Source: Flavobacteriales bacterium
Lineage (GTDB): Bacteria; Bacteroidota; Bacteroidia; CAIKAF01
Assembly: GCA_052437175.1 (NCBI GenBank)
Contig: JBQVOK010000004.1
Coordinates: 183,337 to 247,336, forward strand
Length of the DNA stretch: 64,000 bases
Direction of reading: 5' to 3'
Of the stretch, positions 8,317 through 59,600 are shown piece by piece. A program made the position numbers and the translations under genes. Below the pieces are notes generated by a model. The model saw only the letters and a list, made by a program, of their open reading frames with translations, had not been told where the DNA came from and did no database searches. Position 1 is the stretch's first letter, and the number at the start of each line of letters is the position of its first letter.

Positions 8317-9501
8317 TTATTTGATCAGTTTTCCTGTTGTGCTCTGACCGTCGAGGATCAGGGTATAGAAATAGATACCGGCAGGATACTGGTTGAAGTC
8401 GATAGAACGAACGAATTTACCGTTGGTCAGTGAACCCAGGTTCATACGCTGCAGTTCTTTACCTGTGATATCGGTAATTTTCAGTTCGGCTTTCTCGATG
8501 TTTTTGTTAACGGCAAAGTTGATGTTTGCCATATCGGTTACCGGGTTCGGAGCGGCGTAGATGTAGTTCAGACCGGCAGCAGCGTGCTCTTCGATAGATA
8601 CGTTATCGGCCATAGTTACATAAGCCCACTGAGACCATGTCTGGTAGGGGTTTTCTGCAGCACCGTCAGCATCCTGGTTGTTGTTACAGTCATAGTACCA
8701 TACATAGTCACCGGCAGCGGTCGGAACCAGTACAGAGATCGCCGGAGGCAGAACTACTCTGTAGAAAGCAGACGGGTAGAAGAAAGATTCAAAGATACCG
8801 TCTGTGGTCAGACACTGTGAAGTACCATCTGTAGGATAAGATACAACGGGCATCAGGGTGTCACCGATCGGAGCGCGGTATTCCATACGGATAGCGAAAG
8901 CACCCTGGGCAGAAGCCGGCAGTGTGATGTTCGGCGTAAAGAACAGACGGGTAGTAGGGTAACCTGTACCTGAAGGCTGACCAGACAGGTCAACGTTTGT
9001 AACCAGGGTATCTCTCCAGTAGATATCAGAAGCGGTGGCCTCAACCGGACGACCGTTAGCGTCTACACGTACCAGGGAAACGAAGATAGAGTCGTTTACG
9101 TTAGATGGTGTGGAAGCACTTCTGAAGTGAGCTGTATTGATGAAGATACTGTCGATAGTCATGGAGGTGATGTTCGCGTTCGGTACCAGCTCAAAGTTTG
9201 TGTAGTCCGTAGTACGGGCAATTTGTTTGTAAACCTGGTAAGTAACCCCGAACTCGAAAGAGTCAGCAAAGTTGCGGTTCACAGGAGCCACGAATGTGCT
9301 GTTCGGGTTAGAAAGCAGGTAGCTGTCATAACCTTCGGCATCCACATAGTAAGAACCTGTTGCCTTATCAGAAACAGCGTATTTCTGAGTAGGAGCAACT
9401 CTGTACTTTAAATTAGGCATTGCAGATTGTGTTTGTACCTGGCTGTAGGCTGTAAATCCCAAAGAGGCGCCTAAGGCCAGAAATAGTAATCTTTTCTTCA
9501 T
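8317..9501 (-). CDS. Secreted protein of unknown function with a T9SS C-terminal sorting domain
   Basis: 394 aa with a signal peptide (MKKRLLFLALGASLGFTAYSQ) and a C-terminal T9SS CTD (YAAPNPVTDMANINFAV...AGIYFYTLILDGQSTTGKLIK). Confidence 0.8.
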   Translation of the reverse strand: MKKRLLFLALGASLGFTAYSQVQTQSAMPNLKYRVAPTQKYAVSDKATGSYYVDAEGYDSYLLSNPNSTFVAPVNRNFADSFEFGVTYQVYKQIARTTDYTNFELVPNANITSMTIDSIFINTAHFRSASTPSNVNDSIFVSLVRVDANGRPVEATASDIYWRDTLVTNVDLSGQPSGTGYPTTRLFFTPNITLPASAQGAFAIRMEYRAPIGDTLMPVVSYPTDGTSQCLTTDGIFESFFYPSAFYRVVLPPAISVLVPTAAGDYVWYYDCNNNQDADGAAENPYQTWSQWAYVTMADNVSIEEHAAAGLNYIYAAPNPVTDMANINFAVNKNIEKAELKITDITGKELQRMNLGSLTNGKFVRSIDFNQYPAGIYFYTLILDGQSTTGKLIK

Positions 9502-42436: not shown

Positions 42437-43180
42437 TCAGGCGAGGGTCTGCAAAAGTTCGGTACGTTCGTTGGTGGTGGTATCCAGTATCCCGATGCGT
42501 TTAAAGGAGATAAAGGAGCCCATGTCGTAATCCCCGTTGATAAAGATGGCCCCGGCCAGGATCACGTGTCTGCAGGTGAACTTGGTACCGGCCACCAGTT
42601 CTTCGATCTTCTGGTCGATGGCGTCGTACATGATACCGGTAGCCTCCAGCACAGGATTTTCGGCGGTAATGATGCGGTTCTCGTGCTGGTACAGGATCTG
42701 TTCAATGATGTTCATCTGGTGGTCGGAGAGCGAGCGTTTGCCCGGCTCTATACGCCGCGCCCGCAGTTTGGCTATGGCCGCATGTACGGGATAACTGCAG
42801 GGCGAATAACTGATCTGTCCCGAACGCAGTACGGCCCCGATATTGGCATCTTTGGTAACCCCGGTATTGGGCGCATACAGGATGCAGGCCGCCCCGTCTT
42901 CGGGTACGTGCTGTGCAAACATCTGCATGCCGGTTTTGCCCGCAAAGGGATACCCGCACAAACCGCCCATCCGGAAAGGCCCCAGCATCTGCAGGGCATT
43001 GGCAGGATATTGTACGGAGTTTATTTCGTCGGAACCTATACTATCAGCATATACCAGCTGGGCAGGTTTGTAACCCGCATGATCGGATATCATCTGCAGC
43101 AGCATGGTTATGGCATCTTCACTTGCGAGCGCATCAGGATAAAATCGTCTAACCGTTTCTAAATGCTTTTTATTACTCAT
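42437..43180 (-). CDS. Hypothetical cytoplasmic protein
   Basis: 247 aa with no signal peptide. It lies 74 nt upstream of the three-gene unknown cluster. I could not assign a family. Confidence 0.55.
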   Translation of the reverse strand: MSNKKHLETVRRFYPDALASEDAITMLLQMISDHAGYKPAQLVYADSIGSDEINSVQYPANALQMLGPFRMGGLCGYPFAGKTGMQMFAQHVPEDGAACILYAPNTGVTKDANIGAVLRSGQISYSPCSYPVHAAIAKLRARRIEPGKRSLSDHQMNIIEQILYQHENRIITAENPVLEATGIMYDAIDQKIEELVAGTKFTCRHVILAGAIFINGDYDMGSFISFKRIGILDTTTNERTELLQTLA

Positions 43181-43314
43181 GATTACTGTTATTTACAAAA
43201 CTCGGAGCGGGTATGATGGCAGGGTTTTGTAATAGCAGGCCTGTGTCATGAATAAGGTATGCGCATTACCTCTATCCGTATTATACTGAAATTGGCTGCG
43301 CCGGGTTACATTTT

Positions 43315-44316
43315 CTACATTAAAATATTGTTTACAGGCGTTATCGGTTTGGGTAAATCGCTCTCATTCAGCATTTCGCGCAGGTCTATTTCGATGCTGC
43401 GGCTCAGGGCGGTGATGGGTACGTCGTTCGGACCGCCTTCGAAAGGGTTCTCCGTACTTTCGCCCACCTGTTCCATAGAGGTAAAGATCCAGGAAACCAG
43501 CACGCTGAACGGGATGGTGAACCATACGCAGTAATCGCCGATCTTGTTGAACTCGTTCAGCATACCGAAAGGCAGAATGCATACGAATATCCAGATAAAG
43601 AACAGGTTAATGCTGGCGAACTGGCGCGGGTAGGGGAAGTTCTTGATGCGTTCGGACCTGCCCTGTTGTTCGTAGAGGTCGGCCAGGCGGCGTTCCAGCT
43701 CTACAAAACGGTAGTTTTCCAGGCTTCCGTTCCGGTTCAGGAGGCGCAGTTGTTCCGACTGGATGGCAATGATCTGCGTGGCAGGATTGGCCCTGTGCTG
43801 TACCTGTGCAAACTCGGCTTCCGAAAGGTAAGGCCGCACGGCTTCTGCAAAGGGCATCTGCTGTTCGGGTACTTTAAAATGGCGGTGGTATTCTACGTTG
43901 TAGGATTTGTTCTGGTTTTCCCAGGAACGCGGGCTGCGCAGCTGGTAACGCAGGGCCGTAAGCCAGGCTATATGCCGGTATACCAGGGTTCTGTGTACTT
44001 CGGCGTCGGCAGTGGCATCGCCGCTCTGGATAAAATCGCGCACCATAATGCCCCAGCTTCTGCTGCTGTTTACTACGGCTCCCCATATCTGCCGGGCCTC
44101 CCAGAGGCGGTTGTAGGTCTGGGTGTTTTTAAAGCCCACGATAAAAGCGGCACCCGTACCTACCAGGGCTACCGGAACCCAGGGTATGCCCAGCCAGTGC
44201 CAGCCGAAAACGGCAAAAAGTACGGTGGGAATGGTGGAAATAAGTACGAGGATAAAAATGTTGACCTTGGTCCAGACAAGGAATTCTTTCAGTTTATAAT
44301 GGCTTCCGGTATGCAT
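43315..44316 (-). CDS. Bestrophin-family (UPF0187) anion channel homologue
   Basis: ORF 43315..44397. I prefer the start at the Met of MHTGSHYKLKEF (44316), which removes the overlap with the upstream NhaP. It has TM helices at the N-terminus and in the last third, a bestrophin-like layout. The family call rests on pattern recall. Confidence 0.5.
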   Translation of the reverse strand: MHTGSHYKLKEFLVWTKVNIFILVLISTIPTVLFAVFGWHWLGIPWVPVALVGTGAAFIVGFKNTQTYNRLWEARQIWGAVVNSSRSWGIMVRDFIQSGDATADAEVHRTLVYRHIAWLTALRYQLRSPRSWENQNKSYNVEYHRHFKVPEQQMPFAEAVRPYLSEAEFAQVQHRANPATQIIAIQSEQLRLLNRNGSLENYRFVELERRLADLYEQQGRSERIKNFPYPRQFASINLFFIWIFVCILPFGMLNEFNKIGDYCVWFTIPFSVLVSWIFTSMEQVGESTENPFEGGPNDVPITALSRSIEIDLREMLNESDLPKPITPVNNILM

Positions 44317-44329
44317 ATTCCGTAACGGT

Positions 44330-45931
44330 TTAGAGTGTAAGACGGGCTTCGTCGAGGTCGAGCTGGTTTTCCTGCTTGCGTACCACTTCGTGTTCAAAAA
44401 TGCGTTCGTGGTGAATTTTGGCCAGTTCGCTGCGCTGTGCCTGTATCAGGTCCAGCAGTACCCGGTTGTATTGCTCGATCCCGGCCTTTTCCATGGTATC
44501 GCATTCCAGCGATTCCAGGCGCTGGTGGGTAAGACTGATGTCGTTCTCGAGGCGTTTTTTCAGGTTCTCTACCAGTTCGTTGGCCGAAATATGCGGGGCG
44601 TGTGCCTGGTTAAGCCGTTCCAGGGCCGAACGCATGAGGCGCAGGCGTATGGCGGCTTCCTGTTCTTCTACGGGGATCAGGTCGTCGATCTCGCGTATAT
44701 GAGCCCAGCGGATAATGAAGGGCAGGCTCAGGCCCTGTACCACCAGGGTTACCAGGATCACCACAAAGGTGATGAACAGGATGAGATTGCGCTGTGGAAA
44801 ATGCTGGCCGTTATCCAGCAGCATGGGCACCGAAAGTGCCGAAGCCAGCGATACCACTCCGCGCATACCCGCCCAGCTGATGAGCAGGGGCCCCTGCCAG
44901 CCCGGACTGGGTTCCTTGGCCCGGATCGATTTGCTGAGCCAGCGGGGTACAAAGGCCGCCGGGTATACCCAGATAAAACGGATAAGAATGGTAATAGCGC
45001 TGATAATAAGTCCGTAACGTATGCCCTCGCTGATGGAGTACCCGTTGAGACCTTCTACAATAATAGGCAGTTCGAGCCCGATAAGAATGAAAATAATGCC
45101 GTTGAGGATAAAAATAACGGTAGACCATACGCTTACCGTCTGCAGGCGCGACTGGTGATTGAAAATGACATTGCTGCGGTACGAAAGAAAGAGTCCGCCG
45201 CTTACCACAGCCATTACCCCGGAAAAGTGGAACTGCTCTGCCCCGATGTACATAATGTAGGGGGCCATAAAGGTAAGTGCCGTATCGATGTTTGACGTAG
45301 TAGGAAAGTAGCGGTGGATCACATAAAAGACCATGGCCACGGCCAGTCCGCACACAATACCCATGCCGGCCACGATAAAGAAATCGGAAACGGCCTCCCG
45401 CAGGGTGAAATGCCCGGTGAGTACGGCTGCCAGTGCAAAGCGGAACACAATGAGGCTGGACGCGTCGTTGATGAGGCTTTCGCCTTCGAGGATGGTCACC
45501 ACACGTTTGGGAATCTTGATGCCTTTGAGCACCGAGGTGGCCGCCACGGCATCGGGGGGCGAAATGATGCCGCCCAGCAGGAAACCCATGGCCAGGGTAA
45601 ACCCGGGGATCATCTGGCTGGAGACCAGGGCTACTATGCAGGAGGTAAAGATCACCAGCCCGAAGGCCAGCAGCCCGATGGGGCGTTTCCATTTCCAGAA
45701 ATCGTTCCATGAGGTGTACCAGGCCGCTTCATAGAGAATGGGCGGCAGAAAGATGATAAAGACCAGCTCCGGGTCCAGTTCAATATGCGGAATGCCCGGT
45801 ATCAGGCTGATGATAAGGCCTCCCAGTACCAGGAATATCGGGTAGGATATACGTAGTTTCTGCCCCAGCATCACCAGCATGGAAACAGCAAAGAGAAGCG
45901 AAATGATGAGAAGTATCGTATGGTGAAGCAT
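44330..45931 (-). CDS. Na+/H+ (cation/proton) antiporter, CPA1/NhaP type
   Basis: 533 aa with 10-12 TM helices followed by a ~130-aa cytoplasmic tail. The N-terminus resembles NhaP/CPA1 (…FLVLGGLIISLIP…PPILYEAAWYTSW…). Confidence 0.85.
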   Translation of the reverse strand: MLHHTILLIISLLFAVSMLVMLGQKLRISYPIFLVLGGLIISLIPGIPHIELDPELVFIIFLPPILYEAAWYTSWNDFWKWKRPIGLLAFGLVIFTSCIVALVSSQMIPGFTLAMGFLLGGIISPPDAVAATSVLKGIKIPKRVVTILEGESLINDASSLIVFRFALAAVLTGHFTLREAVSDFFIVAGMGIVCGLAVAMVFYVIHRYFPTTSNIDTALTFMAPYIMYIGAEQFHFSGVMAVVSGGLFLSYRSNVIFNHQSRLQTVSVWSTVIFILNGIIFILIGLELPIIVEGLNGYSISEGIRYGLIISAITILIRFIWVYPAAFVPRWLSKSIRAKEPSPGWQGPLLISWAGMRGVVSLASALSVPMLLDNGQHFPQRNLILFITFVVILVTLVVQGLSLPFIIRWAHIREIDDLIPVEEQEAAIRLRLMRSALERLNQAHAPHISANELVENLKKRLENDISLTHQRLESLECDTMEKAGIEQYNRVLLDLIQAQRSELAKIHHERIFEHEVVRKQENQLDLDEARLTL

Positions 45932-45973
45932 GCCGAAAGATAAGGGAAAACCGTAAGACTGGAAAAGGCTGTT

Positions 45974-46585
45974 CTATAACGGGGCCACGGTGTTGCGCGT
46001 AAGCTTCAGGTCGCGGATATACCCGTCCTCGAGGCTGTACACCCAGCCGTGAATATAGGGATATTCACCTTTTTCCCATTCGTCCTGGATAAAGGAGACC
46101 ATCGACAGGTTCTTTACCTGTTCCTGTACGTTCAGCTCCACATAGCGGTCAGATTTTTTCTGCGGGTCGCTGATCAGCTCCAGCTCCTCCTTATGCAGCA
46201 TGCCCACATTGCGTATATGCGAGAGCCAGTTGTTCAGGAAACCATAGTTGTCGCCGGTTATCGCCGCGTTCACACCTCCGCAGCCGTAGTGGCCGCATAC
46301 GATAATGTGTTTTATTTTCAGGTGTTTAACGGCGAAATACACCACGCTCAGCATGTTCATATCGGTATGCACCACCATATTGGCAATATTACGGTGTACA
46401 AAAATAGAACCCGGCAGGTGATTGGTTACTTCGGTGGCGGGTACGCGGCTGTCGGAACAACCGATCCACAGGAACTGCGGGTTTTGTCCTTTCGACAGCT
46501 GATCAAAAAAGTCGGGAATGGTCTCATTCATTTTTTTCACCCATTCCTTGTTTCCTTCCAGGAGTTTTTTTATCAATTCGGCCAT
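45974..46585 (-). CDS. Beta-class carbonic anhydrase
   Basis: 203 aa with zinc ligands in CSDSR…HxxCGG context (WIGCSDSRVPATEV … IIVCGHYGCGGVNAA). Confidence 0.9.
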   Translation of the reverse strand: MAELIKKLLEGNKEWVKKMNETIPDFFDQLSKGQNPQFLWIGCSDSRVPATEVTNHLPGSIFVHRNIANMVVHTDMNMLSVVYFAVKHLKIKHIIVCGHYGCGGVNAAITGDNYGFLNNWLSHIRNVGMLHKEELELISDPQKKSDRYVELNVQEQVKNLSMVSFIQDEWEKGEYPYIHGWVYSLEDGYIRDLKLTRNTVAPL

Positions 46586-46683: not shown

Positions 46684-48006
46684 TTAGGGAGTGTGGCCGG
46701 GCATGCCTTTTTTACGGTTGAAGAGCAGGATAAACAGCAGGGTACTCAACCCGGTAAGCAAAGGGTAATAGAGTACGGCAATAAGTTCAGAGGCCGGTAC
46801 GGCAAACCCGGCCAGCGTGAGCGCCGTAAGCACCTGTGCCCCGTAGGGAAGCAGGCCCTGTACCGAACAGGTTATGGTATCCAGTATACTGGCGCTTTTG
46901 CGCAGATCGACATTGTTTTTAACGGCGATCTCGCGGGCTACGGGCCCGGTGATCAGTATGGCGATGGTATTATTGGCCAGGCAGGCATTTACGCCCGCCG
47001 CCAGTGCCGCAATACCCAGGGAGGCCCTGCGTGGCGAACCGCTGTGCCGGTCCAGGCGCTGCAGCAAGAACTGTATGCCGCCGTGGTAGCTGATCAGGCC
47101 TGTTATTCCGCCGATGAGTATACAAATAACGCACAGCTCATACATACCCGCCATACCCGTATTTACCGAAGCCATACCCTGCAGCAGCAACAGGCTGCCC
47201 CGGTACATACCCAGGGCCAGGCTTAGCAGAATACCGCATACTAAGGTCCACAGTACGTTAAGGCCGCAGAGGGCCAGCACAAAAATGACTGCGTAGGGCA
47301 GCATGGTAAGCAGGTCGTAAACTCCGGCTGCCGGAAGTTCCTGCCTTTGTGTACCGTAAAATATGTACAGGGCGATCGTAAGGAGCGCGGCGGGCAGTAC
47401 CACCATAACGTTGAGACGGAACTTATCGCGCATGTTCACGCCCTGCGTACGTGTGGCGGCAATGGTGGTATCAGAAATGAAAGAGAGATTATCGCCGAAC
47501 ATGGCCCCGCCGATCACCGCAGCCAGGGCGGGAGCCAGGCTGTCTGGCACGCTCTGGCTCAAGCCAGCGGCAATAGGTGTAACTGCGGCAATGGTGCCCA
47601 CCGAGGTGCCCAGAGAAAGCGAAATAAAGGCCGCAATGACAAAAAGTCCGGCCACGAAGGTCCCCGGCGACAGGTAGTGCAGGGCGAACTGTACCACAGA
47701 ATCAACGGCGCCGATGTCTTTGCTCAGTTGCCCGAAAGCCCCGGCCAGTATAAAAATAAGGCACATAAGCATAAGATCGCTGTGACCGGCTCCCCGGCAG
47801 AATTCCTGCAGACGCAGGGCAAAAGGCACCGAAGGGAACTGAAGTAAACCGATGACGGCGGTCAGCAGAAAGACCACCGGCACCGGTAGTTGATAAAAGT
47901 CGCCGAAGGCAATGCCGGCGCCCAGGTAGATGAGAACAAAGAGCAGCAGCGGCAGCAGGGCCAGCGGGTTGCCTTTTTCGGAGCGGAGTGTGCTTTCAGA
48001 GCTCAT
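46684..48006 (-). CDS. NhaC-family Na+/H+ antiporter
   Basis: 440 aa with about 12 TM helices. Confidence 0.6.
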   Translation of the reverse strand: MSSESTLRSEKGNPLALLPLLLFVLIYLGAGIAFGDFYQLPVPVVFLLTAVIGLLQFPSVPFALRLQEFCRGAGHSDLMLMCLIFILAGAFGQLSKDIGAVDSVVQFALHYLSPGTFVAGLFVIAAFISLSLGTSVGTIAAVTPIAAGLSQSVPDSLAPALAAVIGGAMFGDNLSFISDTTIAATRTQGVNMRDKFRLNVMVVLPAALLTIALYIFYGTQRQELPAAGVYDLLTMLPYAVIFVLALCGLNVLWTLVCGILLSLALGMYRGSLLLLQGMASVNTGMAGMYELCVICILIGGITGLISYHGGIQFLLQRLDRHSGSPRRASLGIAALAAGVNACLANNTIAILITGPVAREIAVKNNVDLRKSASILDTITCSVQGLLPYGAQVLTALTLAGFAVPASELIAVLYYPLLTGLSTLLFILLFNRKKGMPGHTP

Positions 48007-48014
48007 GCAGCGCT

Positions 48015-49085
48015 TTAGCGATGGAAACGCAGGGGGATAAGTGAATACGCGATCATGCCCTGCACCTGGCGACGGACGCGACGCAGACGCACTTTGTTCC
48101 GGGGCCCGATGCGGTAACGCCGCACATTGGTAAGCAGTACGCCGGCCAGGATCACGCTGAGCCCGTAAAACTGGCTGCCGCTGATGGTCTCGTCCAGGAA
48201 GAGCCAGCCCGCGATCACGGCCACCACCGGGTTAATATAGGTGTGTGTGCTTACGATGGCCGGTGTACGCACACTCAGCAGCCATATATAGGACAGGTAG
48301 GCAATAATGGAGCCGAAGAACACCAGGAAACCCAGTCCGGCCCAGGCGCTTAGTGGTACCCGTGCCGCTGAGAAACTATTCCATTCACCGCGGAACGCAG
48401 CAATGAGCATACTGGCCACACCGGCCATCAGCAACTGCTGGGAGCTGTTCATAACCGTTGAGCCTTTGGCCGGGTAATTGCGGGAGAAGATAGAACCGAT
48501 CACCCAGGAAACGGAACTCAGCGCCAGTACAATGAAGGCTATGGCACGCTGACTGCCTTCGCCGTGCGTATGGCCGCTCACACTGTCTTTGAGAAAGAGC
48601 CAGAGCCCGATGAACCCGATCACCAGCCCCATGATGATAAAGGGATCGGCAAAATAATGTTTCCAGTTCTTGCGGTCGATGGCAATGAACCAGAAGGGGC
48701 CGGTGGCAATGGCAATGGCGGCTTCGGTAGAGCTCACGTATTGTTCGCCCCAGGCCACCAGTCCGGTACCGCCGGTAAGGATGAGTATGCCGGTAAGGGC
48801 ATTACGGCCCCAGTCGCGAAGGCTCAGACGGCGTTCCCCGCTGCCGTATTTCCAGGCAAAAAGCAGCAGGCCGGCCGCCAGGAAGCGGAACCCTGAAAGA
48901 ATAAAAGGCGGGAACCCTTTAAGGCCGTACATTACCGCCAGGAAGGTAGAGCCCCATATAATAAAAATGCTGGCGAAGGCAAGCGGTATCGCTCTCTTCT
49001 GTATTGTATTCTGTAACATAGATATCGTTTTATTTGAATGAAAAAAGTCCCGCGGTACAGTAGCACGGCGGGACTCTTTAACCAA
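48015..49085 (-). CDS. EamA/DMT-family transporter
   Basis: Two EamA repeats with 10 TM helices. The true start may be the internal Met (MLQNTIQKRAIP…) at ~49019. Confidence 0.8.
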   Translation of the reverse strand: MVKESRRATVPRDFFHSNKTISMLQNTIQKRAIPLAFASIFIIWGSTFLAVMYGLKGFPPFILSGFRFLAAGLLLFAWKYGSGERRLSLRDWGRNALTGILILTGGTGLVAWGEQYVSSTEAAIAIATGPFWFIAIDRKNWKHYFADPFIIMGLVIGFIGLWLFLKDSVSGHTHGEGSQRAIAFIVLALSSVSWVIGSIFSRNYPAKGSTVMNSSQQLLMAGVASMLIAAFRGEWNSFSAARVPLSAWAGLGFLVFFGSIIAYLSYIWLLSVRTPAIVSTHTYINPVVAVIAGWLFLDETISGSQFYGLSVILAGVLLTNVRRYRIGPRNKVRLRRVRRQVQGMIAYSLIPLRFHR

Positions 49086-49647
49086 TTAAAGAAAAAGTAT
49101 TATAAGCCGTGCTTCGTATATATGTGCATTCGCCAACATTTCATATTGTTGTCGTTTGCCCGCAGGTTCGGTCGGATCGTGTTGCCGTGGATCATCGCTT
49201 TCATGTCTGTTACTTTCTGTTTATGTCAAAAAAAAAAACGCCCCGGAATTACCCGGAGCGTTTCTATATAAAGTACGTATCTGACGAATTTATACAGGTT
49301 TTATCCGGTAACGTGCACACATACACATACGTGACCACATCTTCGGGGAAGCAGGCATGCACGGAGCGTTATGTGTTAATGTTGTTTTCACCGGGAACGG
49401 TTGTTTTTCTGTTTCGGGGGCAAAAGTATATTAAATTATTTATCCTACCAAACAAGTAGGATAAGTAAAATGCATATTTTACATAAAATTTACCGAAGAG
49501 GCCCCTGAAAACTTTCCGGGTGAAATTACCTGTATTTGGGGTATACAATGGCAGGGTTTTAAGTTTACAATTGTGTTTAACTATTTGTTTATCAATAAAT
49601 TGATATTGTATTTTTTTTCGTATATAAAAGAAGGCCATCTAAACTTA

Positions 49648-49684
49648 ATTTGCAGGAGTCCTTTTTAGTCGCTTATATTTGTTC
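49648..49684 (+). promoter_or_regulatory. Candidate Bacteroidetes sigma-A promoter for the tail-collar gene array
   Basis: -33 TTG at 49650-49652 and -7 TATATTTG at 49674-49681 with a 21-nt spacer, about 45 nt upstream of the ATG at 49728. Confidence 0.5.
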
Positions 49685-49727: not shown

Positions 49728-50267
49728 ATGGAAGGTACAATCGGAGAAATCCGCCTTTTTGCCGCTACATTCGCACCAAAAAACTGGTGGTATTGTGACG
49801 GCTCGATTATCGCAATCAGATCCAATACGGCACTGTATTCCATTCTGGGTACCACTTATGGTGGCGACGGAGTGCAGACATTTGCCTTACCCGATCTGAA
49901 AGGACGTTCAGCTCTGGGAGCAGGGCAGGGTAACGGCCTCAGCTACTATCCCCTGGGAGCCATGACGGGAGTGAACAATGTAACGCTGCTGTCATCGAAC
50001 CTGCCGCCGCACACGCACACGGCAACCAACAACATTGTTATTCCGGCTTATTCGGATGAAGGCACGGCCAGCACGCCGGCCAACAATGTACTGGCCGCAA
50101 AAGGTCAGATGTATACGAACCTGGCGGGTGATACGAACCTGCATCCGATTCCGTATAACGTAACCGTTGGAATCGCCGGTGCCAGTCAGCCGCTTACGAT
50201 CACACAGCCGGCACTGGGTATGAACTACGTTATCTGTATGTACGGTGTTTTCCCGGCCAGACAGTAA
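49728..50267 (+). CDS. Phage-tail-collar domain (MdpB-like) protein, paralog 1
   Basis: 179 aa with a collar-domain N-terminus (IGEIRLFAATFAPKNWWYCDGS…YSILGTTYGGDGVQTFALPDLKGR) and an HxH motif (LPPHTHTA). Confidence 0.85.
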   Translation: MEGTIGEIRLFAATFAPKNWWYCDGSIIAIRSNTALYSILGTTYGGDGVQTFALPDLKGRSALGAGQGNGLSYYPLGAMTGVNNVTLLSSNLPPHTHTATNNIVIPAYSDEGTASTPANNVLAAKGQMYTNLAGDTNLHPIPYNVTVGIAGASQPLTITQPALGMNYVICMYGVFPARQ

Positions 50268-50326
50268 TTGTGTCCACAGATCTTATTCAGCAAGTTACAC
50301 CTTAACTTATTAAACATTAAAATTTT

Positions 50327-50869
50327 ATGGAAGGTTATATAGGAGAAGTACGCCTGTTTGCAGGTAATTTTGCCCCGCGCAGCTGGGCGTTCTGCGACGG
50401 CAGCTCCATGAGCATATCAGAATATTCTGCCCTGTACGCTATTATCGGCGATACATTCGGCGGCAACGGTGTTACCAGTTTTGACCTGCCCGACCTGCGC
50501 AGCCGCGTGGCCGTAGGTGCAGGAACAGGTCCCGGCCTTACGCCCATTGCACTGGGTCAGGCTGCCGGAACAGAAACGGCAAGTATGTCGGTATCCCAGA
50601 TGCCCGCACACAATCACTTTGCTTCGGCCGTAGTTTCGATGCCGGCATACAGCGGTACCGATACACAGGGAACGCCCACCAATAACTACCTGGCCGGACT
50701 GGCCGGCGCTTATTCGGCAGAAGTGCCCGATTCGCACCTGGCTCCCATTGCGGCCCCGGTAGCACTGAGCACGGCGGGCGCGGGTATCCCGTTCCCGATC
50801 ATACAGCCGATCACGGCTCTTAATTACATTATTTGCGTGGAAGGTATTTTCCCCAGCAGAAACAATTAA
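50327..50869 (+). CDS. Phage-tail-collar domain (MdpB-like) protein, paralog 2
   Basis: 180 aa with the same architecture and an HxH motif (MPAHNHFA). Confidence 0.85.
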   Translation: MEGYIGEVRLFAGNFAPRSWAFCDGSSMSISEYSALYAIIGDTFGGNGVTSFDLPDLRSRVAVGAGTGPGLTPIALGQAAGTETASMSVSQMPAHNHFASAVVSMPAYSGTDTQGTPTNNYLAGLAGAYSAEVPDSHLAPIAAPVALSTAGAGIPFPIIQPITALNYIICVEGIFPSRNN

Positions 50870-50906
50870 TCCTTAACACAACAATTCTCAAAACCTTTTT
50901 GAAATT

Positions 50907-51452
50907 ATGGAAGGAACAATGTCAGAAATCCGCCTTTTTGCCGGGAATTTCGAACCGAAATCCTGGGCATACTGTGCCGGACAACTTTTACCGATAAATA
51001 CCAACCAGGCCCTGTTCAGCCTGCTGGGAACCACATACGGAGGTAACGGGATCCAGACCTTTGCGCTGCCCGACATGCGTGGCCGCATACCTATGGGAAC
51101 CGGCAATGCAGCCGGAATAAACACATACCAGCTGGGCGAAGTGAACGGTGTGAACAACGTAACGGCCACCATGGCCAATCTGCCCGCTCATACCCATAGT
51201 CCGGCTCCCGGCCTGGCACTGAGTATCCCGGCCTATTCAGATTCCGGGGATGTGGGAACACCTACCGGCAATCACCTGGCGGCTCTCGGCGGACTGTATT
51301 CCAACAAAACGCCGGACACCACCATGAAGCCGATCAGCACCAGTGTAACCGTAAGTGTTACCGGGTCTAACCAGCCGATGAGCCTGATGCAGCCTTATCT
51401 CGGAATGAATTATATAATCTGCCTGTATGGAATTTTTCCTTCCAGAGGATAA
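50907..51452 (+). CDS. Phage-tail-collar domain (MdpB-like) protein, paralog 3
   Basis: 181 aa with the same architecture and an HxH motif (LPAHTHSP). It is about 55% identical to paralog 1 by eye. Confidence 0.85.
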   Translation: MEGTMSEIRLFAGNFEPKSWAYCAGQLLPINTNQALFSLLGTTYGGNGIQTFALPDMRGRIPMGTGNAAGINTYQLGEVNGVNNVTATMANLPAHTHSPAPGLALSIPAYSDSGDVGTPTGNHLAALGGLYSNKTPDTTMKPISTSVTVSVTGSNQPMSLMQPYLGMNYIICLYGIFPSRG

Positions 51453-51528: not shown

Positions 51529-52659
51529 ATGAGAATAGCTTTACTTTTACCCCGCTCCATGCTGTACCCGTCCCTGTCTTTTGACATGATGGACGGACTT
51601 AAGTCGGGCCTGAAAAGAACAGGTCTGGATGCCCGGTATGAGGTAGTTTCGGCCAGTATAGGCCTGGCTGCCAAAAACGAGGAGATCTATGCCCGTTGCG
51701 AGCAGGTACTGCTCGACGGTGCCGATGTGGTAGTGGCGTATATGAACCCGCTTTCGGCCGAGTATGTGCATGCTCTCTTCCAGAGCTCAGGCAAACGCCT
51801 GGTGGTGCTCGACAGCGGGTATCATTTCCCGGCATTCCAGGGAAAACTTTCCCATGCCTGGTTCCTTTCTTTACAAGGTAATCTTTGCTGCCGCACCATT
51901 ATGCAGAAGGCTGCTGCGGATGGTTACCGCAATTTTGCACTCAGCTGTTCCTTCTACGATGCGGGTTACCGTCCTTCGTACAGCTACACCACGGCGGCCG
52001 AAGATAAAGGCGGTACCGTGGGCCTGAGCCATATCACACCGCTGCGCCGGGCCGAGTTTAGCCTGGAACGCCTGGCCGAATACCTGGGAGAAAATAAAGA
52101 TGCCGCAATGCTGGCTTCTTTCTGCGGCGATATGGCCGAAGATTTTTTCCGGGAAAGCAGCCGCCTGGAGCTGAGTACCACTTACGATACCTACGGCGCC
52201 GCATTTACGGCTGAGGAAGAATGGCTGGCCAAAATACCCTATCCGGGTAAGGACTGGGATGCGGCCGTTCCGTGGGCCAAAAGCATTGCCACGCCGGCAA
52301 ACGAAGCGTTTGTAAGTACCCTGGAAAGCATCCGCGAAAATAAAGCCAACCTGTTTTCACTGCTGGGCTGGGAAGCCGCCCTTTTTATAGCCGCCACGGA
52401 AACCGGCAGCCCGGAAGGGATCGTTCTGGATTCGCCCCGCGGCCGCGTGCAGATAAATCCCGACACCCAGTTCTCGGAAGCACCGGTATATTTTGCACGG
52501 GTAACGAAGAACGAAGAAACGGGTAACTGCCGCCTTAGCGATGTACGCGATGCCGGAGACCTGCAGGAAGAACGCAGACTGCTGCAGCGCGATATCGATT
52601 ATATACAGACCACAACGGCCAATTCATGGCTGAACGCATACGCCTGCCTGGACTCATGA
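51529..52659 (+). CDS. Signal-less PBP1-fold ligand-binding protein (LivK/AmiC-like), function unknown
   Basis: 376 aa. The N-terminal pattern RIALLLPRS…GLKSGLKRTG…YEVVSAS…ADVVVAYMNPLSAEYVHALFQSSGKRLVVLDSG resembles type-1 periplasmic-binding-protein cores, but there is no signal peptide. Confidence 0.5.
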   Translation: MRIALLLPRSMLYPSLSFDMMDGLKSGLKRTGLDARYEVVSASIGLAAKNEEIYARCEQVLLDGADVVVAYMNPLSAEYVHALFQSSGKRLVVLDSGYHFPAFQGKLSHAWFLSLQGNLCCRTIMQKAAADGYRNFALSCSFYDAGYRPSYSYTTAAEDKGGTVGLSHITPLRRAEFSLERLAEYLGENKDAAMLASFCGDMAEDFFRESSRLELSTTYDTYGAAFTAEEEWLAKIPYPGKDWDAAVPWAKSIATPANEAFVSTLESIRENKANLFSLLGWEAALFIAATETGSPEGIVLDSPRGRVQINPDTQFSEAPVYFARVTKNEETGNCRLSDVRDAGDLQEERRLLQRDIDYIQTTTANSWLNAYACLDS

Positions 52660-53588
52660 GTAACACCCGCCCGCATATAGCTCTTCTCTGTAACAACCGT
52701 ATGGCTGTTCCCGCCCTGCAGACCCTGCATGGTATGGGATTGCTCTGTGCAATAGGCGTGCCGGAGAACAATGCGGATATTATGGATTTCTGTTCTGTTT
52801 TTGCTGCACAGACGGGTATTCCCCTGCAACTTTTCCGTAAAGAGGATTTAGCTGCGCAGCTGAACAACTGGCTGGAGACCAGCCGGGCTGAGACCGTGTT
52901 TATGATGACCTTCCCCTGGAAAATACCGGCTGAGGTACTTTCAGGACAGGCAAAATTCTACAATTTTCATTACGGATTATTACCGGAGATGCGTGGTGCA
53001 GACCCGGTTTTTGAGTCCCTGCGCCAGCAGAAAAAAGAAACGGGCATTACGGTGCATGCGGTTGAAAAAGGTATCGACCGCGGACCGGTGCTTTTTCGTC
53101 AGCCTTTGCCGCTGAGTGCAGATATGACACATGGATTGCTGTGTACCCAGCTGGCTTACCTGGGTGCACGCATCATTCCCGAAGTGCTGAATTCGCTTCA
53201 GCATACAGGGCAGGCACAGGATGAAAGCGGGGCCCGTTATTTCAAAAGGCCGGGTCTGGCCGAAGTATGTGTACGCTGGGAAAGCCAGGATGCCGCTGCG
53301 GCCGCCGCACTGGCCCGGGCCTGTAACCCCTGGAACAAAGGGGCCTATACACAATGGAACGGCTGGAACGTACGCATTGTGGAAGCTACGCCGGTACAGG
53401 CAGACGCAAACGGAGCCCTGCCCGGTACGGTACTTTCCATCGACCGCGAGGGCGGACTTTGCGTGCAATGCAAAGACAATACGCAACTTAAAATCGATAT
53501 TATTTATACCGACGAAGGATTTATGTCCGGACACCGGCTCCTGAGCTTCGGAATGAAGAAAGGCGATCGTTTTACCACTATTCAATAA
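52656..53588 (+). CDS. Fmt-like N10-formyl-tetrahydrofolate-dependent formyltransferase (N- and C-terminal domains), not the canonical Met-tRNA formyltransferase
   Basis: Start taken at MSNTRPHIALL… (52656), which overlaps the upstream stop by 4 nt. The catalytic Asn and His sit in FYNFHYGLLPEMRGADP and the Asp in HAVEKGIDRGPVL. A C-terminal Fmt-like domain is present (…CNPWNKGAYTQWNGWNVRI…). It lacks the Fmt N-terminal GTPxFA / PDRPxGRG signatures. Confidence 0.75.
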   Translation: MSNTRPHIALLCNNRMAVPALQTLHGMGLLCAIGVPENNADIMDFCSVFAAQTGIPLQLFRKEDLAAQLNNWLETSRAETVFMMTFPWKIPAEVLSGQAKFYNFHYGLLPEMRGADPVFESLRQQKKETGITVHAVEKGIDRGPVLFRQPLPLSADMTHGLLCTQLAYLGARIIPEVLNSLQHTGQAQDESGARYFKRPGLAEVCVRWESQDAAAAAALARACNPWNKGAYTQWNGWNVRIVEATPVQADANGALPGTVLSIDREGGLCVQCKDNTQLKIDIIYTDEGFMSGHRLLSFGMKKGDRFTTIQ

Positions 53589-53611: not shown

Positions 53612-56600
53612 ATGAAACATTACGTACATTCTGCATCCAAGGCGTTTCTGCTTTTCTGCCTGCTTGCAGCAGCGATTTTGCAGGGCCGCGATCTTAAGGC
53701 CCAGACGAGCCTTGCTGCGGGCGATATCGCCTTCACGGGGTACAACTCCAACGCATCGCCTGCGGCAGGTGATACCATCGCTTTTGTGCTGCTTACCAAT
53801 ATTTCGGCCAGTACGCAGATCAGCATTACCGACCGCGGTTATAACGGCAGCGGCTGGGTGGGCGCGGGTTCCACAGAAGGGACCATTACCTGGACCACCG
53901 GTTCGGCCTTACCCTGGGGCACAGAGATCTATATCTGCGGCCTTTCGGCGCGGGTATACAACCCGGTATCAGGTACCTTTACCTCCAACGGTAGTGTAAC
54001 GCTTACAGAAGGAACCTCTCCGAACGGACTGTCCATCTCGAACGTGGGCGACCAGTTCATTGCCTTCCAGGGTGGTGGCGGATCTATTACGGGCGGCGGC
54101 GTTACGATCATTGCCGGTCTGCACTTTCTTACCTGTAATGCCAATACCAGCACGGCAACCTGGGACGGAGCGGGTTGTACCATCGGTCCCAATTCATCCG
54201 TTATGCCTCCCGGTCTTACCGGAGGTACCAATGCTTTTTATACAGGCACCATGCCCGGCGGCATACTGCCGACCATCGCCCGTTTTAACTGTACGGGAAC
54301 CCCGGCGACCACGCCTGCACAGATCCGCACGGCCGTTATGAACCAGGCCAACTGGACCCTTGCCAATTCTGCACTTTCCATGCCTTCCAAATGTGTATTT
54401 GTAAGTTCTACCCCGGTGATCAATGCACACCCGCAGAACCGCACCATTTGTAACAACGGCAATACCACCATGTCTATTTCGGCCATAGGGGCCACATCTT
54501 ATCAATGGTATGTGAATACCGGTGCCGGTTTCAATATGGTTCCGGCCGGAGCACCCTACAGCGGTATAAATACCAACACACTTACCATAACAGGGGGTAC
54601 CACGTCTATGAACGGCTACCAGTACCGTTGTGTAGCTACCAACGGCTCAGGCTCAGCCACCAGTAACCCGTCTACACTCACCGTAATTACAGTAACCACA
54701 ACGGGTAGCAGCACGAACGTAAGCTGTATCGGCGGCAATAACGGCAGCGCCACGGTGGTTGCTTCCGGCGGAATTTTGCCCTATACGTACAGCTGGAGCC
54801 CGAGCGGCGGCACAGCAGCCACGGCCAGCGGACTTGCTGCAGATAACTATTCCGTGCTGGTAACCGACAATATAGGATGCCAGGCCACACGGGCCTTTAA
54901 TATTACGGAACCGGCTTCCGGTATGAGCGCTACGATCTCTAAAACCGATGTAAGCTGCAACGGCGGCGGTAACGGAACGGCAACCGTGGTAGTATCGGGC
55001 GGTACTACACCGTATACCTACAGCTGGTCGCCGAGCGGCGGCACCAATGCTACAGCTACCGGTCTCAGCCAGGGAACCTACACGGTAACCGTAACCGATA
55101 ACGGTGGTTGCCAGATCACCCGTAGTATTACCGTAAACCAGCCGGCTACGGCCCTGGGCGGAACTACTTCTAAAACGGACGTAAGCTGCAACGGCGGTGG
55201 CAACGGAACGGCTACGGTAGTAGCTTCCGGCGGTACCACACCGTATACCTACAGCTGGTCACCAAGCGGTGGCACCAATGCTACGGCTACGGGTCTCAGC
55301 CAGGGAACCTACACGGTAACGGTAACCGATTTTAACGGTTGCCAGATCACGCGCAGCGCTACGGTAAACCAGCCTGCTACGGCCCTGGGTGGAACTACTT
55401 CTAAAACAGATGTAAGTTGTAATATGGGTAGCAACGGAACAGCTACGGTAGTAGCTTCCGGCGGTACTACACCGTATACCTACAGCTGGTCGCCAAGCGG
55501 CGGCACCAATGCTACGGCTACGGGTCTTGCTGCGGGTACCTACACGGTAACGGTAACCGATTTTAACGGTTGCCAGATCACGCGCAGCGCTACGGTAACC
55601 CAACCGGCAACGGCCCTGGGCGGAAGCATTTCTAAAACGGATGTAAGCTGCAACGGTGGTAGCAACGGAACAGCCACAGTAGTAGCTTCCGGTGGTACTA
55701 CACCCTATACCTACAGCTGGAGCCCGAGCGGCGGCACCAATGCCACGGCTACAGGTCTTGCGCAGGGTTCCTACACAGTAACGGTAACCGATTTTAACGG
55801 TTGCCAGATCACGCGCAGCGCTACGGTAACCCAACCGGCAACGGCCCTGGATGGTACCATTTCTCAAACCGACGTAAGCTGTACCGGTGGATCTAACGGA
55901 ACGGCTACGGTAGTAGCATCCGGCGGAACTACACCGTATACCTACAGCTGGAGCCCGAGCGGTGGCACCAATGCCACGGCAACGGGTCTTGCGCAGGGCA
56001 CTTATACGGTAACAGTAACCGATTTTAACGGTTGCCAGATCACGCGCAGCACTACGGTAAATCAACCGGCTACCGCCCTGGACGGTACCACTTCTAAAAC
56101 GGATGTAAGCTGTAATGGAGGTAGCAACGGAACGGCCACAGTAGTAGCCTCCGGTGGTACAGGAACCTATACCTACAGCTGGGCACCGAGCGGTGGCACC
56201 AATGCCACGGCAACGGGTCTTGCCGCCGGTACCTACACGGTAACGGTAACCGATAACAATAGCTGCCAGATCACCCGTACCGTAACGGTAAATCAGCCTG
56301 CGGCCCTTGACGGTACTACCTCTAAAACGGATGTAAGCTGCAACGGCGGAGCCAACGGCACGGCCACGGTGGTTGCTTCCGGTGGTACTACGCCCTATAC
56401 CTACAGCTGGTCACCGAGCGGTGGTACCAATGCTACGGCAACGGGTCTTTCACAGGGTACATATACCGTAACGGTAACCGATAACAATACCTGTCAGATC
56501 ACCCGCACGGTAACGGTAAATCAGCCTGCGGCCCTCGATGGCACTATTTCCAAAACGGATGTAAGCTGCAACGGCGGAAGCAACGGAACGGCCACAGTAG

Positions 56601-59600
56601 CAGTGTCCGGCGGTACTACACCCTATACCTACAGCTGGGCTCCTTCGGGCGGAACGGCTGCTACGGCTACGGGTCTTGCCCAGGGCACTTACACGGTAAC
56701 CGTAACCGATAACAATACCTGCCAGATCACCCGTACGGTAACGGTAAATGAACCTGCTGCCATGGTGCTTACCCCGTCTCACACCGATGTAAGCTGTAAC
56801 GGCGGCGGTAACGGAACAGCTACCGTAACGGTAAGCGGCGGCGCTACTCCATACAGCTACAGCTGGTCGCCATCGGGCGGAACGGCTGCTACAGCTACCG
56901 GTCTTGCCGCAGGCACGTACACGGTAACTGTGACCGACAACAATACCTGCCAGGCTACGCAAAGCATTACGGTAAATCAGCCTTCTGCCATCAGCCTTAC
57001 GCCTTCACATACGGATGTAAGCTGCAATGGCGGTTCTAACGGTACGGCCACGGTAACAGCCAGTGGTGGTGTGGGGCCTTACAGCTACAGCTGGAGCCCG
57101 AGCGGCGGCACAGCAGCTACGGCCACGGGTTTGGCTGCGGGTACGTACACCGTAACCGTAACCGATAACAATACCTGCCAGGCTACGCAAAGCATTACGG
57201 TAAATCAGCCTTCTGCCATCAGTCTTACGCCTTCACATACGGATGTAAGTTGTAACGGAGGTTCTAATGGTACGGCCACAGTAACAGCCAGCGGTGGTGT
57301 GGGTCCTTACAGCTACAGCTGGAGCCCGAGCGGTGGTACCAATGCCACGGCCACGGGTTTGGCAGCGGGTACGTACACGGTAACGGTAACCGATAACAAT
57401 ACCTGCCAGGCTACGCAAAGCATTGCGGTAAGTCAGCCTGCTGCCCTTAGTATAACACCTTCGCATACGGATGTAAGCTGTAATGGCGGTTCTAACGGTA
57501 CGGCCACGGCTACGGTAAGCGGTGGTGTAGGTCCCTACAGCTACAGCTGGTCGCCATCAGGCGGCACCAATGCCACAGCTACAGGTCTTGCGGCAGGCAC
57601 GTATACGGTAACGGTAACGGATAACAATACCTGCCAGGCTACGCAAAGCATTACGGTAAATCAGCCTGCTGCGATCAGCCTTACTCCCTCACATACGGAT
57701 GTAAGCTGCAATGGCGGTTCTAACGGTACGGCCACGGTAACAGCCAGTGGTGGTGTGGGTCCTTACAGCTACAGCTGGAGCCCGAGCGGCGGAACGGCTG
57801 CTACAGCTACAGGTCTTGCTGCAGGTACGTATACGGTAACTGTGACCGATAACAATACCTGCCAGGCTACACAGAGCGTTACCATTACAGAGCCCTCGGC
57901 TTTCAGTGTAACGCCTTCGCACACGAATGTAAGCTGTAACGGCGGCAGCAACGGTACAGCCACGGTAACGGTAAGCGGCGCCACGGCACCGTACAGCTAC
58001 AGCTGGTCGCCATCAGGCGGCACCAATGCCACGGCTACGGGTCTTGCCGCAGGCACCTACACGGTAACCATCACCGATAATAATACCTGCCAGACCACAC
58101 AGAGCATTACCATCACGCAGCCTTCGGCTTTCAGCGTAACACCTTCGCATACCAATGTAAGCTGTAACGGCGGCGGCAACGGCACGGCCACGGTAACGGT
58201 AAGCGGTGCTACAGCGCCATACAGCTACAGTTGGTCGCCATCGGGCGGCACCAATGCCACAGCTACAGGTCTTGCCGCAGGCACGTATACGGTAACCATC
58301 ACGGATGACAATACCTGCCAGACGACACAGAGCATTACCATCACGCAGCCTTCGGCCTTCAGCATCACGGCTTCACAGACAGATATACTCTGCAATGGAG
58401 CCTCTACCGGTACGGCCACGGTAACGGTGAGCGGCGCTACGGCTCCCTATACCTACAGCTGGAGTCCTTCAGGCGGTACAGCGGCTACGGCCAGCGGTCT
58501 TTCTGCAGGTACGTATACGGTGACCATCACCGACAGCAATATGTGCCAGGCCACACAAAGCTTCAGCCTGCTGCAGCCCCTGGCCTTCAGTATTACGGGC
58601 AGTCAGACCAATATCAGCTGTAACGGCGATTCTACAGGTACGGCCACCGTAACGGTAAGCGGCGCCACAGCCCCGTATACCTACAGCTGGAGTCCTTACG
58701 GCGGTACAGCGGCCACGGCTGCGGGTCTTGTAGCGGGTACCTACACGGTAACGGTTACCGACAGCAACCTGTGCCAGACCACACAAAACTTTACCCTGAC
58801 CGAGAGCCCGGCCCTGGCCGTTCAGGTTTCATCGGCAGACCTAAGCTGCTTCGGTGCTAACAACGGTTATGCAGCCGTAACGGTAAGCGGCGGCGTAGGT
58901 CCGTATACTTACAGCTGGACCGGTGGCGGAGCAACGGATTCTATCGGCGGACTTACCGCAGGTGTGTATACCGTAACCATTACCGATTCCCTGTTCTGTA
59001 CCACACAAGCAAATGTTACGATAAACGAACCTGCCGAACTGACCCTGCAGATGTGGCAGCAGAATATTTCCTGCACAGGTAACGGCGCCGACGGTATGGC
59101 TGCCGTAACCGTAAGCGGCGGAACTACCCCGTACAACTACAGCTGGACGCCGGGTGCCCAGACAAACGACAGCCTCAGTAACCTGGCCGCCGGTACCTAC
59201 ACGGTACTGGTTACCGATGACAATGGCTGCAGTGCTACAGACAGCGTTGTGATAGACGGCCCCGAGCAGTTCCAGGCAACGCAGAATGTAAGTATCTGCC
59301 AGGGCCAGAGTTACAGCATCGGAAACAGTACCTACACAGCGGGTGGTACGTATACCGATACACTGCTTACAGCCGCCGGCTGCGACAGCGTGGTAACAAC
59401 CATACTGACCGTAAATACCGTAAATGCGACCATTACCAATAACGATCCCACACTGCTGGCTTCTGCAGGTGGCACAGACTACAAATGGATGAACTGCGAA
59501 ACCGGTCAGCTCATCGGTGGCGCCACATCGCAGAGTTACACAGCCACAGCCAACGGCAGCTATGCGGTGATCATAACACAGAACGGATGTACCGATACTT

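Follow-up and report, generated by a model that had tools for sequence, protein, structure and literature searches.

The locus analysed here lies in a 64,000-nucleotide (nt) stretch of DNA from a Flavobacteriales bacterium (contig JBQVOK010000004.1, positions 183,337 to 247,336), which we refer to as the window, and begins with three tandem plus-strand genes for small proteins of the Collar family of phage tail fibres. Their products, ColA (49728-50267; 179 amino acids, aa), ColB (50327-50869; 180 aa) and ColC (50907-51452; 181 aa), are each predicted to be a standalone collar plus head module and match the Pfam Collar model (PF07484) with E values of 7e-24, 5e-26 and 4e-26 and scores of 84, 90.8 and 91.2 bits, respectively. 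Because these scores far exceed the gathering cut-off of 24, the matches are not due to chance. The three proteins share the N-terminus MEG(T/Y)(I/M)(G/S)E(I/V)RLFA and a histidine motif, PPHTH in ColA, PAHNH in ColB and PAHTH in ColC, that occupies one alignment column with P93, H95 and H97 invariant among the window copies. An earlier note, made from the sequence without database searches, had reported three tandem HxH collar genes of the phage-tail-collar (MdpB-like) type, and we confirm their coordinates, lengths and family, which is that of the RhiB/'MdpB'-type collar proteins (COG4675). Its identity estimate of 50-55% was slightly high: the genes are indeed diverged paralogues, and the measured pairwise values are 46% (A-B), 54% (A-C) and 44% (B-C). 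ColB, with an isoelectric point of 4.6, is the most acidic copy. In each collar open reading frame (ORF) the start is the first possible start codon after a stop, so that no N-terminal extension or signal peptide is possible, in agreement with the earlier note; the collars also have neither the Sec signal peptide nor the C-terminal sorting domain (CTD) of type IX secretion system (T9SS) cargo. Directly downstream of ColC follow three co-oriented genes, separated by gaps of 76, -4 and 23 nt, for a periplasmic-binding-protein-like (PBP-like) protein, an Fmt-like formyltransferase and a giant T9SS cargo protein.

The six genes are found together well beyond the window. The order ColA-ColB-ColC-PBP-Fmt-giant was present in 26/26 loci (genomes or close relatives), and the order of the three collars and the PBP-like gene in 47 orthologous loci, with the Fmt-like gene next in 45 of the 47. 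All 47 have exactly three collars in fixed order, with no loss or gain. Hosts of the full cassette include close metagenome relatives, a 96%-identical 'Bacteroidia bacterium' metagenome-assembled genome (MAG), a Weeksellaceae MAG and many Chryseobacterium species, as well as Flavobacterium pectinovorum, F. hungaricum, F. artemisiae, F. araucananum and F. johnsoniae UW101 (where the PBP-like product is ABQ07057.1, locus L024), and the genes that flank it vary between genera. A profile search of genome contigs with the PBP-like alignment, which used strict peptide patterns, returned only 16 loci. Some Flavobacterium cassettes have a gene for an outer-membrane beta-barrel of about 280 aa after the giant, which is absent from the window cassette. 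No terminator-like site was found on the plus strand between the six window genes. We consider it very probable that the six genes form one conserved unit, and the idea of a free-standing collar array put forward in the earlier note must be given up, given that the collars are the first half of a strictly conserved cassette with the PBP-like, Fmt-like and giant genes. We found no published description of this cassette: literature searches returned no paper joining collar proteins with the T9SS, gliding or F. johnsoniae, and the supplements of three F. johnsoniae papers make no mention of its genes. The presence of the cassette in strain UW101, a genetically tractable model for the T9SS and gliding, makes the ideas discussed below directly testable.

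The three collars also have separate and long histories. In a neighbour-joining tree they fall into three clades by position (A, B and C, with the window's ColA, ColB and ColC in clades A, B and C, respectively) across genera and classes. Collars at the same position are on average 60-65% identical across genomes, whereas those at different positions are 47-51% identical whether or not they come from the same genome. Because the clades follow position, and because between-position identity is the same within and between genomes, we infer that the triplication predates the split of the host lineages and that gene conversion has not taken place. The earlier proposal of an old triplication is thereby upheld, with no sign of concerted evolution. 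The PxHxH motif is present in 140 of the 141 collar proteins of the 47 orthologous loci. Ratios of non-synonymous to synonymous substitution rates (dN/dS), calculated against two close relatives (loci L001 and L008), were 0.02-0.12 for the collars, with ColA at 0.02-0.08 and ColB at 0.06-0.08, and 0.08-0.10 for the PBP-like and Fmt-like genes, so all five small genes are under purifying selection. Column conservation is likewise similar, at 0.62-0.66 for the collars, 0.67 for the PBP-like protein and 0.60 for the Fmt-like protein.

What the collars are related to becomes clear from the tip of a phage fibre. A search with a single collar sequence recovered the T4 short tail fibre gp12 and a related Gp12 as the sole solved relatives, and a 62-sequence profile also matched the long tail fibre of cyanophage A-1(L) (8kec; PMC10966104) in an alignment that spans the collar and the LPxHxH motif (LPsHqH). 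The gp12 tip (PDB 1ocy, 1pdi, 5iv5) has a length of about 180-190 aa, like the window collars, and shares with them the order of an N-terminal collar strand, WxxC, a GTxYGG...LPDxRG core, HxH and a final NYII strand. With hhalign, the collar profile aligned to gp12 residues 330-527 with a probability of 95.5% and an E value of 1.4e-8; the aligned span covers gp12 residues 344-461 and pairs LPAHTH with MSYHKH, template positions 116 and 118 being His445 and His447 of gp12. In the gp12 trimer, these two histidines are the ligands of the six-histidine zinc site. Iron as the metal of a fibre is the case of gp37. By homology to gp12, the metal expected at the collar HxH would be zinc, and the earlier suggestion that HxH is an Fe2+ or metal staple remains plausible in its second half, with zinc in place of iron.

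Near the C-terminus all three collars have an MNYV/IIC strand that resembles the LNYIIK at the end of gp12 (...LNYIIKVKE), and this last strand lies about 100 residues downstream, at the C-terminus, as in a split collar. Because the profile alignment, the position of HxH and the C-terminal strand all match gp12, we interpret each 180-aa collar as a shaftless fibre tip, predicted to comprise the collar plus head and to be equivalent to gp12 residues ~340-527. The head region is not alignable beyond residue ~110. It is less conserved than the collar part, and the most variable block in the orthologue alignment, residues ~131-150, is as might be expected of a binding face. In contrast to the window collars, gp12 is one chain that includes a shaft and a baseplate-attachment part; the collars have neither part and are three diverged paralogous chains encoded by chromosomal genes. 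They begin five residues before the collar strand, with no N-terminal shaft or adaptor of the kind found in virion fibres. Homologues in phages (489 records, every one less than 41% identical) either form the C-terminal part of a larger minor tail protein, as in Clayda5 gp17, or stand alone as a tail protein of 189 aa, as in LittleFortune gp41. We class the three genes as a domesticated fibre-tip triplet placed in a conserved operon that we found nowhere described. Few 'phage tail protein' annotations in bacterial chromosomes are commoner than Collar-domain proteins, whose role in the cell has been an open question since the description of rhiB in 1992.

Given the phage origin of the domain, one could suppose that the collars are all that is left of a decaying prophage, tailocin or contractile injection system, and one locus seems at first to fit: in F. 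pectinovorum, the region upstream of the cassette contains three eCIS_core (PF13699) genes, one of which also encodes an endonuclease domain (L004, 1-3903). These neighbours occur only there and in no other genus, and are probably coincidental. The window itself is chromosomal in context, with housekeeping genes, and we found no phage-like gene in its 64 kb by ORF inventory and by Pfam searches of the cassette flanks and of a close relative, a PHROGs scan of the other window ORFs not having been run. Megablast of positions 38000-62000 matched none of 50,697 phage records, and the window is free of tRNA genes. Tail, baseplate, capsid and integrase genes were absent from the window and from every related locus, as the earlier note had said of phage and contractile-injection genes in the neighbourhood; nor are homologues elsewhere consistently embedded in prophage tail modules, the finding it had named as fatal to its own account. 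Collars on viral contigs are at most 47% identical to ours, are without PBP or Fmt partners, and occur as one copy (64 loci), two (5), three (8), six (1) or nine (1). With the cassette conserved across classes at dN/dS values this low, we reject a prophage remnant and regard any such origin for the present genes as exceedingly improbable. These collar genes should no longer count as prophage signals in Bacteroidota genomes. As a separate observation, two putative viral contigs consist almost wholly of tandem standalone collars, nine in L109 (IMG/VR, 5456 nt) and six in L118, both multiples of three. A known anti-phage defence system was also considered and rejected, since PADLOC matched no defence family to any of the five small cassette proteins.

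The best clue to how the collars assemble comes from a virus. The virophage DSLV2 has three consecutive, co-oriented PF07484 genes of about 180 aa (~19 kDa each), as in the window, and their products co-purify and form a 1:1:1 heterotrimer, also by electron microscopy, that binds Synechococcus cells, probably via lipopolysaccharide (LPS) (PMC12724248). The likeness is one of gene arrangement rather than measured sequence kinship, and the DSLV2 genes are viral and lie beside capsid genes without the PBP-like, Fmt-like and giant partners, whereas ours are chromosomal. That arrays of this kind are functionally uncharacterised is still true where the bacterial cassette is concerned, whereas tandem collar triplets as such no longer fit the statement. 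We favour, with modest confidence, a heterotrimer in the bacterial case as well, because of the fixed three-copy order without gain or loss, the equal constraint on the copies, the HxH in each chain, a poor monomer model and, above all, the DSLV2 precedent. The monomer model, an AlphaFold2 (AF2) prediction of ColC from a 55-sequence alignment, reached a pLDDT of only 54, which would fit an obligate intertwined oligomer. According to this view, ColA, ColB and ColC would assemble 1:1:1 into a single intertwined knob, in which the three HxH pairs would come together as one six-histidine metal site on the trimer axis.

The earlier note had instead seen three distinct specificities, which amounts to three separate homotrimers, each with its own ligand, forming a repertoire of free lectin-like knobs. 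Most phage fibres, T4 gp12 and gp37 included, form homotrimers; identity among the paralogues is just 44-54%, with position-specific conserved residues in each, and loci with two or five collar copies exist. A repertoire of independent specificities should gain and lose copies, yet three are found in fixed order in 47/47 orthologous loci across classes, all three evolve at similar, slow rates, and the same-size tandem triplet proved to be a heterotrimer in the one tested case. We therefore think separate specificities less likely than a single A/B/C heterotrimer, and unlikely in absolute terms.

The last gene of the cassette suggests where such a knob might act. It spans 53612-59872 (plus strand) and encodes a T9SS cargo protein of 2086 aa with a Sec signal peptide, a conserved N-terminal domain, an Ig_3 domain, about 20 SprB repeats (20 stretches matched, E 3e-207) and a type A CTD (aa 2018-2082, approximately 59663-59857; Por_Secre_tail, E 5e-21). 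Within the cassette, the combination of Sec signal and CTD was found in this sixth gene only. Its N-terminal domain (aa 31-266, 53702-54409, plus strand) is 51-61% identical across genera and was modelled well by AF2 (pLDDT 85, pTM 0.87), and the model had no fold match among solved structures; a word-indexed search with this domain returned only 16 proteins, mostly partial. The giant resembles the SprB and RemA adhesins of F. johnsoniae in being T9SS cargo, with SprB repeats, a Sec signal and a T9SS sorting domain. SprB itself has a type B CTD and an adjacent SprF-like shuttle (PMC12618676), whereas the window giant has a type A CTD and its own conserved N-terminal domain, with no sprC, sprD or sprF adjoining. 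Orthologues range from about 2083 to more than 3000 aa. Long stretches of the window gene are internally repetitive (self-matches at 65-71% identity across 1300-1600 aa and many SprB units that are nearly identical), which makes it prone to mis-assembly or recombination. Further T9SS-type C-termini are encoded on the minus strand at 62012-64000, 7204-8196, 8317-9501 and 25597-26919, and the protein at 62012-64000 has Ig-like repeats distantly similar to those of the giant.

Between the collars and the giant lie the two enzyme-like genes. The PBP-like protein (51529-52659, plus strand, 376 aa) has a type I periplasmic-binding-protein fold without a signal peptide, matches Peripla_BP_6 (E 2e-8), is weakly similar to PDB 4evs and 4f06, and is 56-62% identical to the Flavobacterium and Chryseobacterium copies. 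As with the collars, NCBIfam gave no match for it. No ABC permease or ATPase gene was found in any cassette, as would accompany a substrate-binding protein of the LIV type, and its kinship to ABC binding proteins appears to be at the level of the fold only. The family comprises 267 clusters, and an exhaustive profile search with it returned 151 representatives at E<=1e-30, rising to 604 at E<=1e-10. Its C-terminus, WLNAYACLDS in the window, is conserved. The extreme end of the family follows the form W-x-N-x-Y-x-C/G-hydrophobic with at most two residues after it, kept from Bacteroidota to the signal-bearing branch described below, which suggests a functional motif. The Fmt-like protein (52656-53588, plus strand, about 310 aa counted from M11) has Formyl_trans_N and Formyl_trans_C domains; its ORF opens at 52626, the M11 start was inferred from relatives, and this start overlaps the PBP-like stop codon by 4 nt. 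E. coli Fmt is the best solved match (1fmt, E 6e-21), with which it shares the two-domain layout and the aligned N-x-H and D catalytic residues. The formyltransferase domain of ArnA is, beside Fmt, its closest known counterpart. It scores 103.3 bits against the TIGR00460 fmt equivalog (cut-off 201.5) and 69 against ArnA (cut-off 777), and because both scores are far under the cut-offs we conclude that it is neither Fmt nor ArnA.

The association of collars with these partners extends to diverged relatives. A metagenome scan seeded with the collar alignment found 79 loci, 35 of which extended 2.5 kb or more beyond the collar array in each direction; among those 35, a PBP-like or Fmt-like gene is present in 33, both in 30 and the giant's N-terminal domain in 29. 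Of the flanked loci, the 20 of orthologous type all have three collars, and 13 diverged ones have three (seven loci), two (five) or five (one). The diverged loci have the same four component types, sometimes in rearranged order (for example PBP-Fmt-three collars-giant), with a PBP-like protein at 20-38% identity and different giant domains, and add as neighbours Asp/Asn beta-hydroxylase-like cupins, PKHD-type 2-oxoglutarate (2OG) oxygenases, NodU-type carbamoyltransferases and APS kinase. A protein of about 165-185 aa without a Pfam match, ending in LQWxGMT...PYPxMxxW, is encoded directly upstream of the collars in diverged cassettes (L058, 4943-5488, minus strand; L086, 6308-6829; L093, 7338-7892; L072, 6912-7409) and is absent from the window.

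A large, long branch of the PBP-like family, with proteins of 410-442 aa, has unmistakable twin-arginine translocation (Tat) signal peptides, and three loci of this type lie on contigs long enough to show neighbours. L189, a GC-rich contig with spore genes, encodes the Tat-PBP, a GNAT acetyltransferase, a DUF6916 protein, three collars without a signal, and a surface protein longer than 2100 aa that contains DUF11 repeats and an SLH domain. L192/L193 has the Tat-PBP, three collars, GNAT, DUF6916 and a large secreted protein, and L191 has the Tat-PBP and then a collar gene, where the contig stops. The version seen outside Bacteroidota combines a PBP that has a Tat signal, three collars, GNAT and a giant protein, either DUF11/SLH or another secreted one, with the non-homologous GNAT taking the place of Fmt. 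The DUF6916 protein, about 100 aa, accompanies the GNAT/Tat-type versions in two unrelated loci (L189, 10799-11107; L192, 12566-12895, minus strand). In L067 five collars are found with a Tat-PBP, Fmt and an 1890-aa EGF/ephrin-receptor-like protein. The domain make-up of the giant differs by lineage (SprB repeats, cadherin-like/CHU_C, EGF/ephrin-receptor-like or DUF11/SLH), and a giant surface protein adjoins the collars in three kinds of envelope system (T9SS with a type A CTD, T9SS with CHU_C, and SLH). One large branch of the Collar family can now be assigned a fixed set of partners, consisting of the PBP-like protein, the N-acyltransferase and the giant surface fibre. Bacteroidota show this association as such, and at least two other lineages show it in modified form.

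Because the adjacency of a giant surface protein persists in three kinds of envelope system, it suggests that the knob serves surface recognition together with the giant. In the explanation that we prefer, bacteria would long ago have captured the receptor-binding collar plus head module from a phage tail fibre, and its three descendants would form a heterotrimeric knob that is one component of a chromosomal operon also making the T9SS-displayed SprB-repeat fibre, the PBP-like protein and the Fmt-like N-acyltransferase. Knob and fibre would together recognize a ligand, probably a glycan, in cell-surface adhesion, and the PBP-like/acyltransferase pair might be dedicated maturation or escort factors. 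We give this explanation as a whole a probability of roughly 45%; its weakest part is export, and we propose only tentatively, with some doubt, that the collars act outside the cell with the giant fibre. If a heterotrimeric tip of this kind exists, bacteria would have domesticated a viral receptor-binding device for their own surface recognition.

Several considerations weigh against this explanation. In the window and in every Bacteroidota locus, no Sec, Tat or T9SS signal is recognizable on the collars, the Fmt-like protein or the PBP-like protein, and an extracellular role would require that Bacteroidota collars be exported by a route outside these signals. The five variant loci with two collars and the one with five show that a strict A/B/C trimer is not universal. 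The variability of the giant domains may mean that the partner is just 'a large surface protein', or that the adjacency has some other cause. Finally, the metagenome loci were retrieved with collar N-terminal patterns, and the co-occurrence seen there covers close relatives rather than the whole Collar family, for which more than 8000 clusters were retrieved.

Alternatively, the collars might remain in the cytoplasm with the PBP-like and Fmt-like proteins, either as substrates of the acyltransferase or as a scaffold on which some product is made or modified, the giant being a regulatory neighbour or a downstream beneficiary. Such an arrangement would account for the lack of an export signal on any of the five small proteins in Bacteroidota, the 4-nt PBP/Fmt overlap suggests translational coupling, and the diverged loci add tailoring enzymes of four kinds (Asp/Asn beta-hydroxylase-like, PKHD-type 2OG oxygenase, carbamoyltransferase and APS kinase). 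Fmt is replaced by GNAT in other lineages, and the second residue of the collars goes with the type of enzyme. Among 111 distinct N-termini in the cellular loci searched, loci that almost without exception carry Fmt, 105 have E or D at this position; it is A or S in 7/7 collars of the three Tat-type loci, and mixed in viral contigs. On the other side, the clear twin-arginine signal of the PBP-like partner elsewhere implies an extracytoplasmic destination for that component at least, every characterised collar plus head relative is an extracellular receptor-binding device, and a large secreted surface protein adjoins the collars in three unrelated lineages. We consider a purely cytoplasmic function unlikely, about as much so as separate homotrimers.

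The signal on the PBP-like protein suggests that in those lineages a pre-folded complex may be exported, and a more elaborate extension of the heterotrimeric surface knob can be built on it. We might be dealing with a cross-phylum, non-viral system of four parts, in which the collar paralogues (typically three), a PBP-like escort, a capping acyltransferase and a giant surface protein work together. The acyltransferase would cap the alpha-amino group of the collar N-termini: where Fmt is present, an ME or MD start would leave the methionine in place to be formylated, and where GNAT is present, an MA or MS start would expose alanine or serine to be acetylated. Transport to the surface would then fall to the PBP-like protein, which would bring the heterotrimer there already folded and loaded with metal, using Tat 'hitch-hiking' where a twin-arginine signal is present; at the surface the trimer would equip the giant fibre with a recognition tip of phage origin. 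The pairing of residue 2 with the enzyme could fit N-terminal capping; it could equally be a lineage effect, and the pattern used in the scan favoured MEG starts. In its full form this scheme is doubtful, and we hold it less probable than a cytoplasmic role. If N-terminal capping does occur, it would reveal a new protein modification enzyme, an Fmt paralogue that acts on a protein N-terminus being a new activity.

The collars might also serve a different use, as a released lectin-like weapon or signal, either a bacteriocin analogue reduced to the fibre tip or a RhiB-like interaction factor directed against foreign glycans, with the giant unrelated to it. Standalone Collar proteins are indeed known from cellular, non-phage operons, as in the window: examples are RhiB from the rhiABCD operon of Rhizobium leguminosarum and MrpB of Microcystis (COG4675, 'microcystin-dependent protein'). 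The rhi operon is controlled by quorum sensing, a Collar-domain protein was found in the exoproteome of Ruegeria (PMC4949626), others are reported in soil metaproteomes, including from Pedobacter, and the module binds LPS in phages and virophages. The operon rhiABCD also includes RhiD, an opacity-type outer-membrane barrel, which recalls the ~280-aa beta-barrel gene at the end of some Flavobacterium cassettes. In contrast to the window, however, rhi has a single collar gene with the unrelated RhiA and RhiC and LuxR/LuxI control; rhiA, rhiC and rhiR/rhiI were not among the cassette-flanking genes, an absence that for RhiA and RhiC, which have no Pfam model, rests on the other identities of the neighbours. 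The cassette includes no lysis, immunity or toxin gene and gave no PADLOC match, the 180 aa of each collar are wholly collar plus head with no killing domain, and a weapon or signal would leave the strict linkage to the PBP-like, Fmt-like and giant genes unexplained. We judge it quite improbable, well below a cytoplasmic function.

Expression of the cassette may start from the region directly upstream of ColA. A putative Bacteroidota-type promoter at 49650-49681 (plus strand) consists of TTG at 49650-49652, a 21-nt spacer and TATATTTG at 49674-49681, about 46 nt upstream of the ColA ATG, and presumably corresponds to the Bacteroidota TTG / TAnnTTTG (-33/-7) consensus. L008 keeps the TATATTTGTTCACCATTAA block, as does the more diverged L001, whereas outside this block the intergenic sequence diverges. 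An Rfam search of the region upstream of ColA gave sub-threshold matches only. The 640-nt AT-rich spacer between the EamA gene and ColA also contains a strong terminator-like hairpin on the minus strand (49234-49265; 14 pairs, then a T-run), kept together with the spacer in L008 and not in L001. The only minus-strand ORF upstream of this hairpin (49369-49638, 89 aa) looks non-coding.

The genes around the collars encode an EamA transporter, an NhaC-type antiporter, carbonic anhydrase, the PBP-like, Fmt-like and giant proteins, and a DUF7822 protein. The minus-strand region 42437-46585 encodes an LCIB-type carbonic anhydrase (PF18599), a bestrophin-like channel, a Na+/H+ exchanger and a beta-carbonic anhydrase, assigned by position in L001; this gene set recalls algal CO2-concentrating components and is unusual in a Bacteroidia genome. 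Between the carbonic anhydrase genes and the cassette, the NhaC-type antiporter and EamA genes (46684-49085, minus strand) are absent at the same position in relatives that are ~90-95% identical (L001-L003), which points to a recent insertion or deletion beside the cassette.

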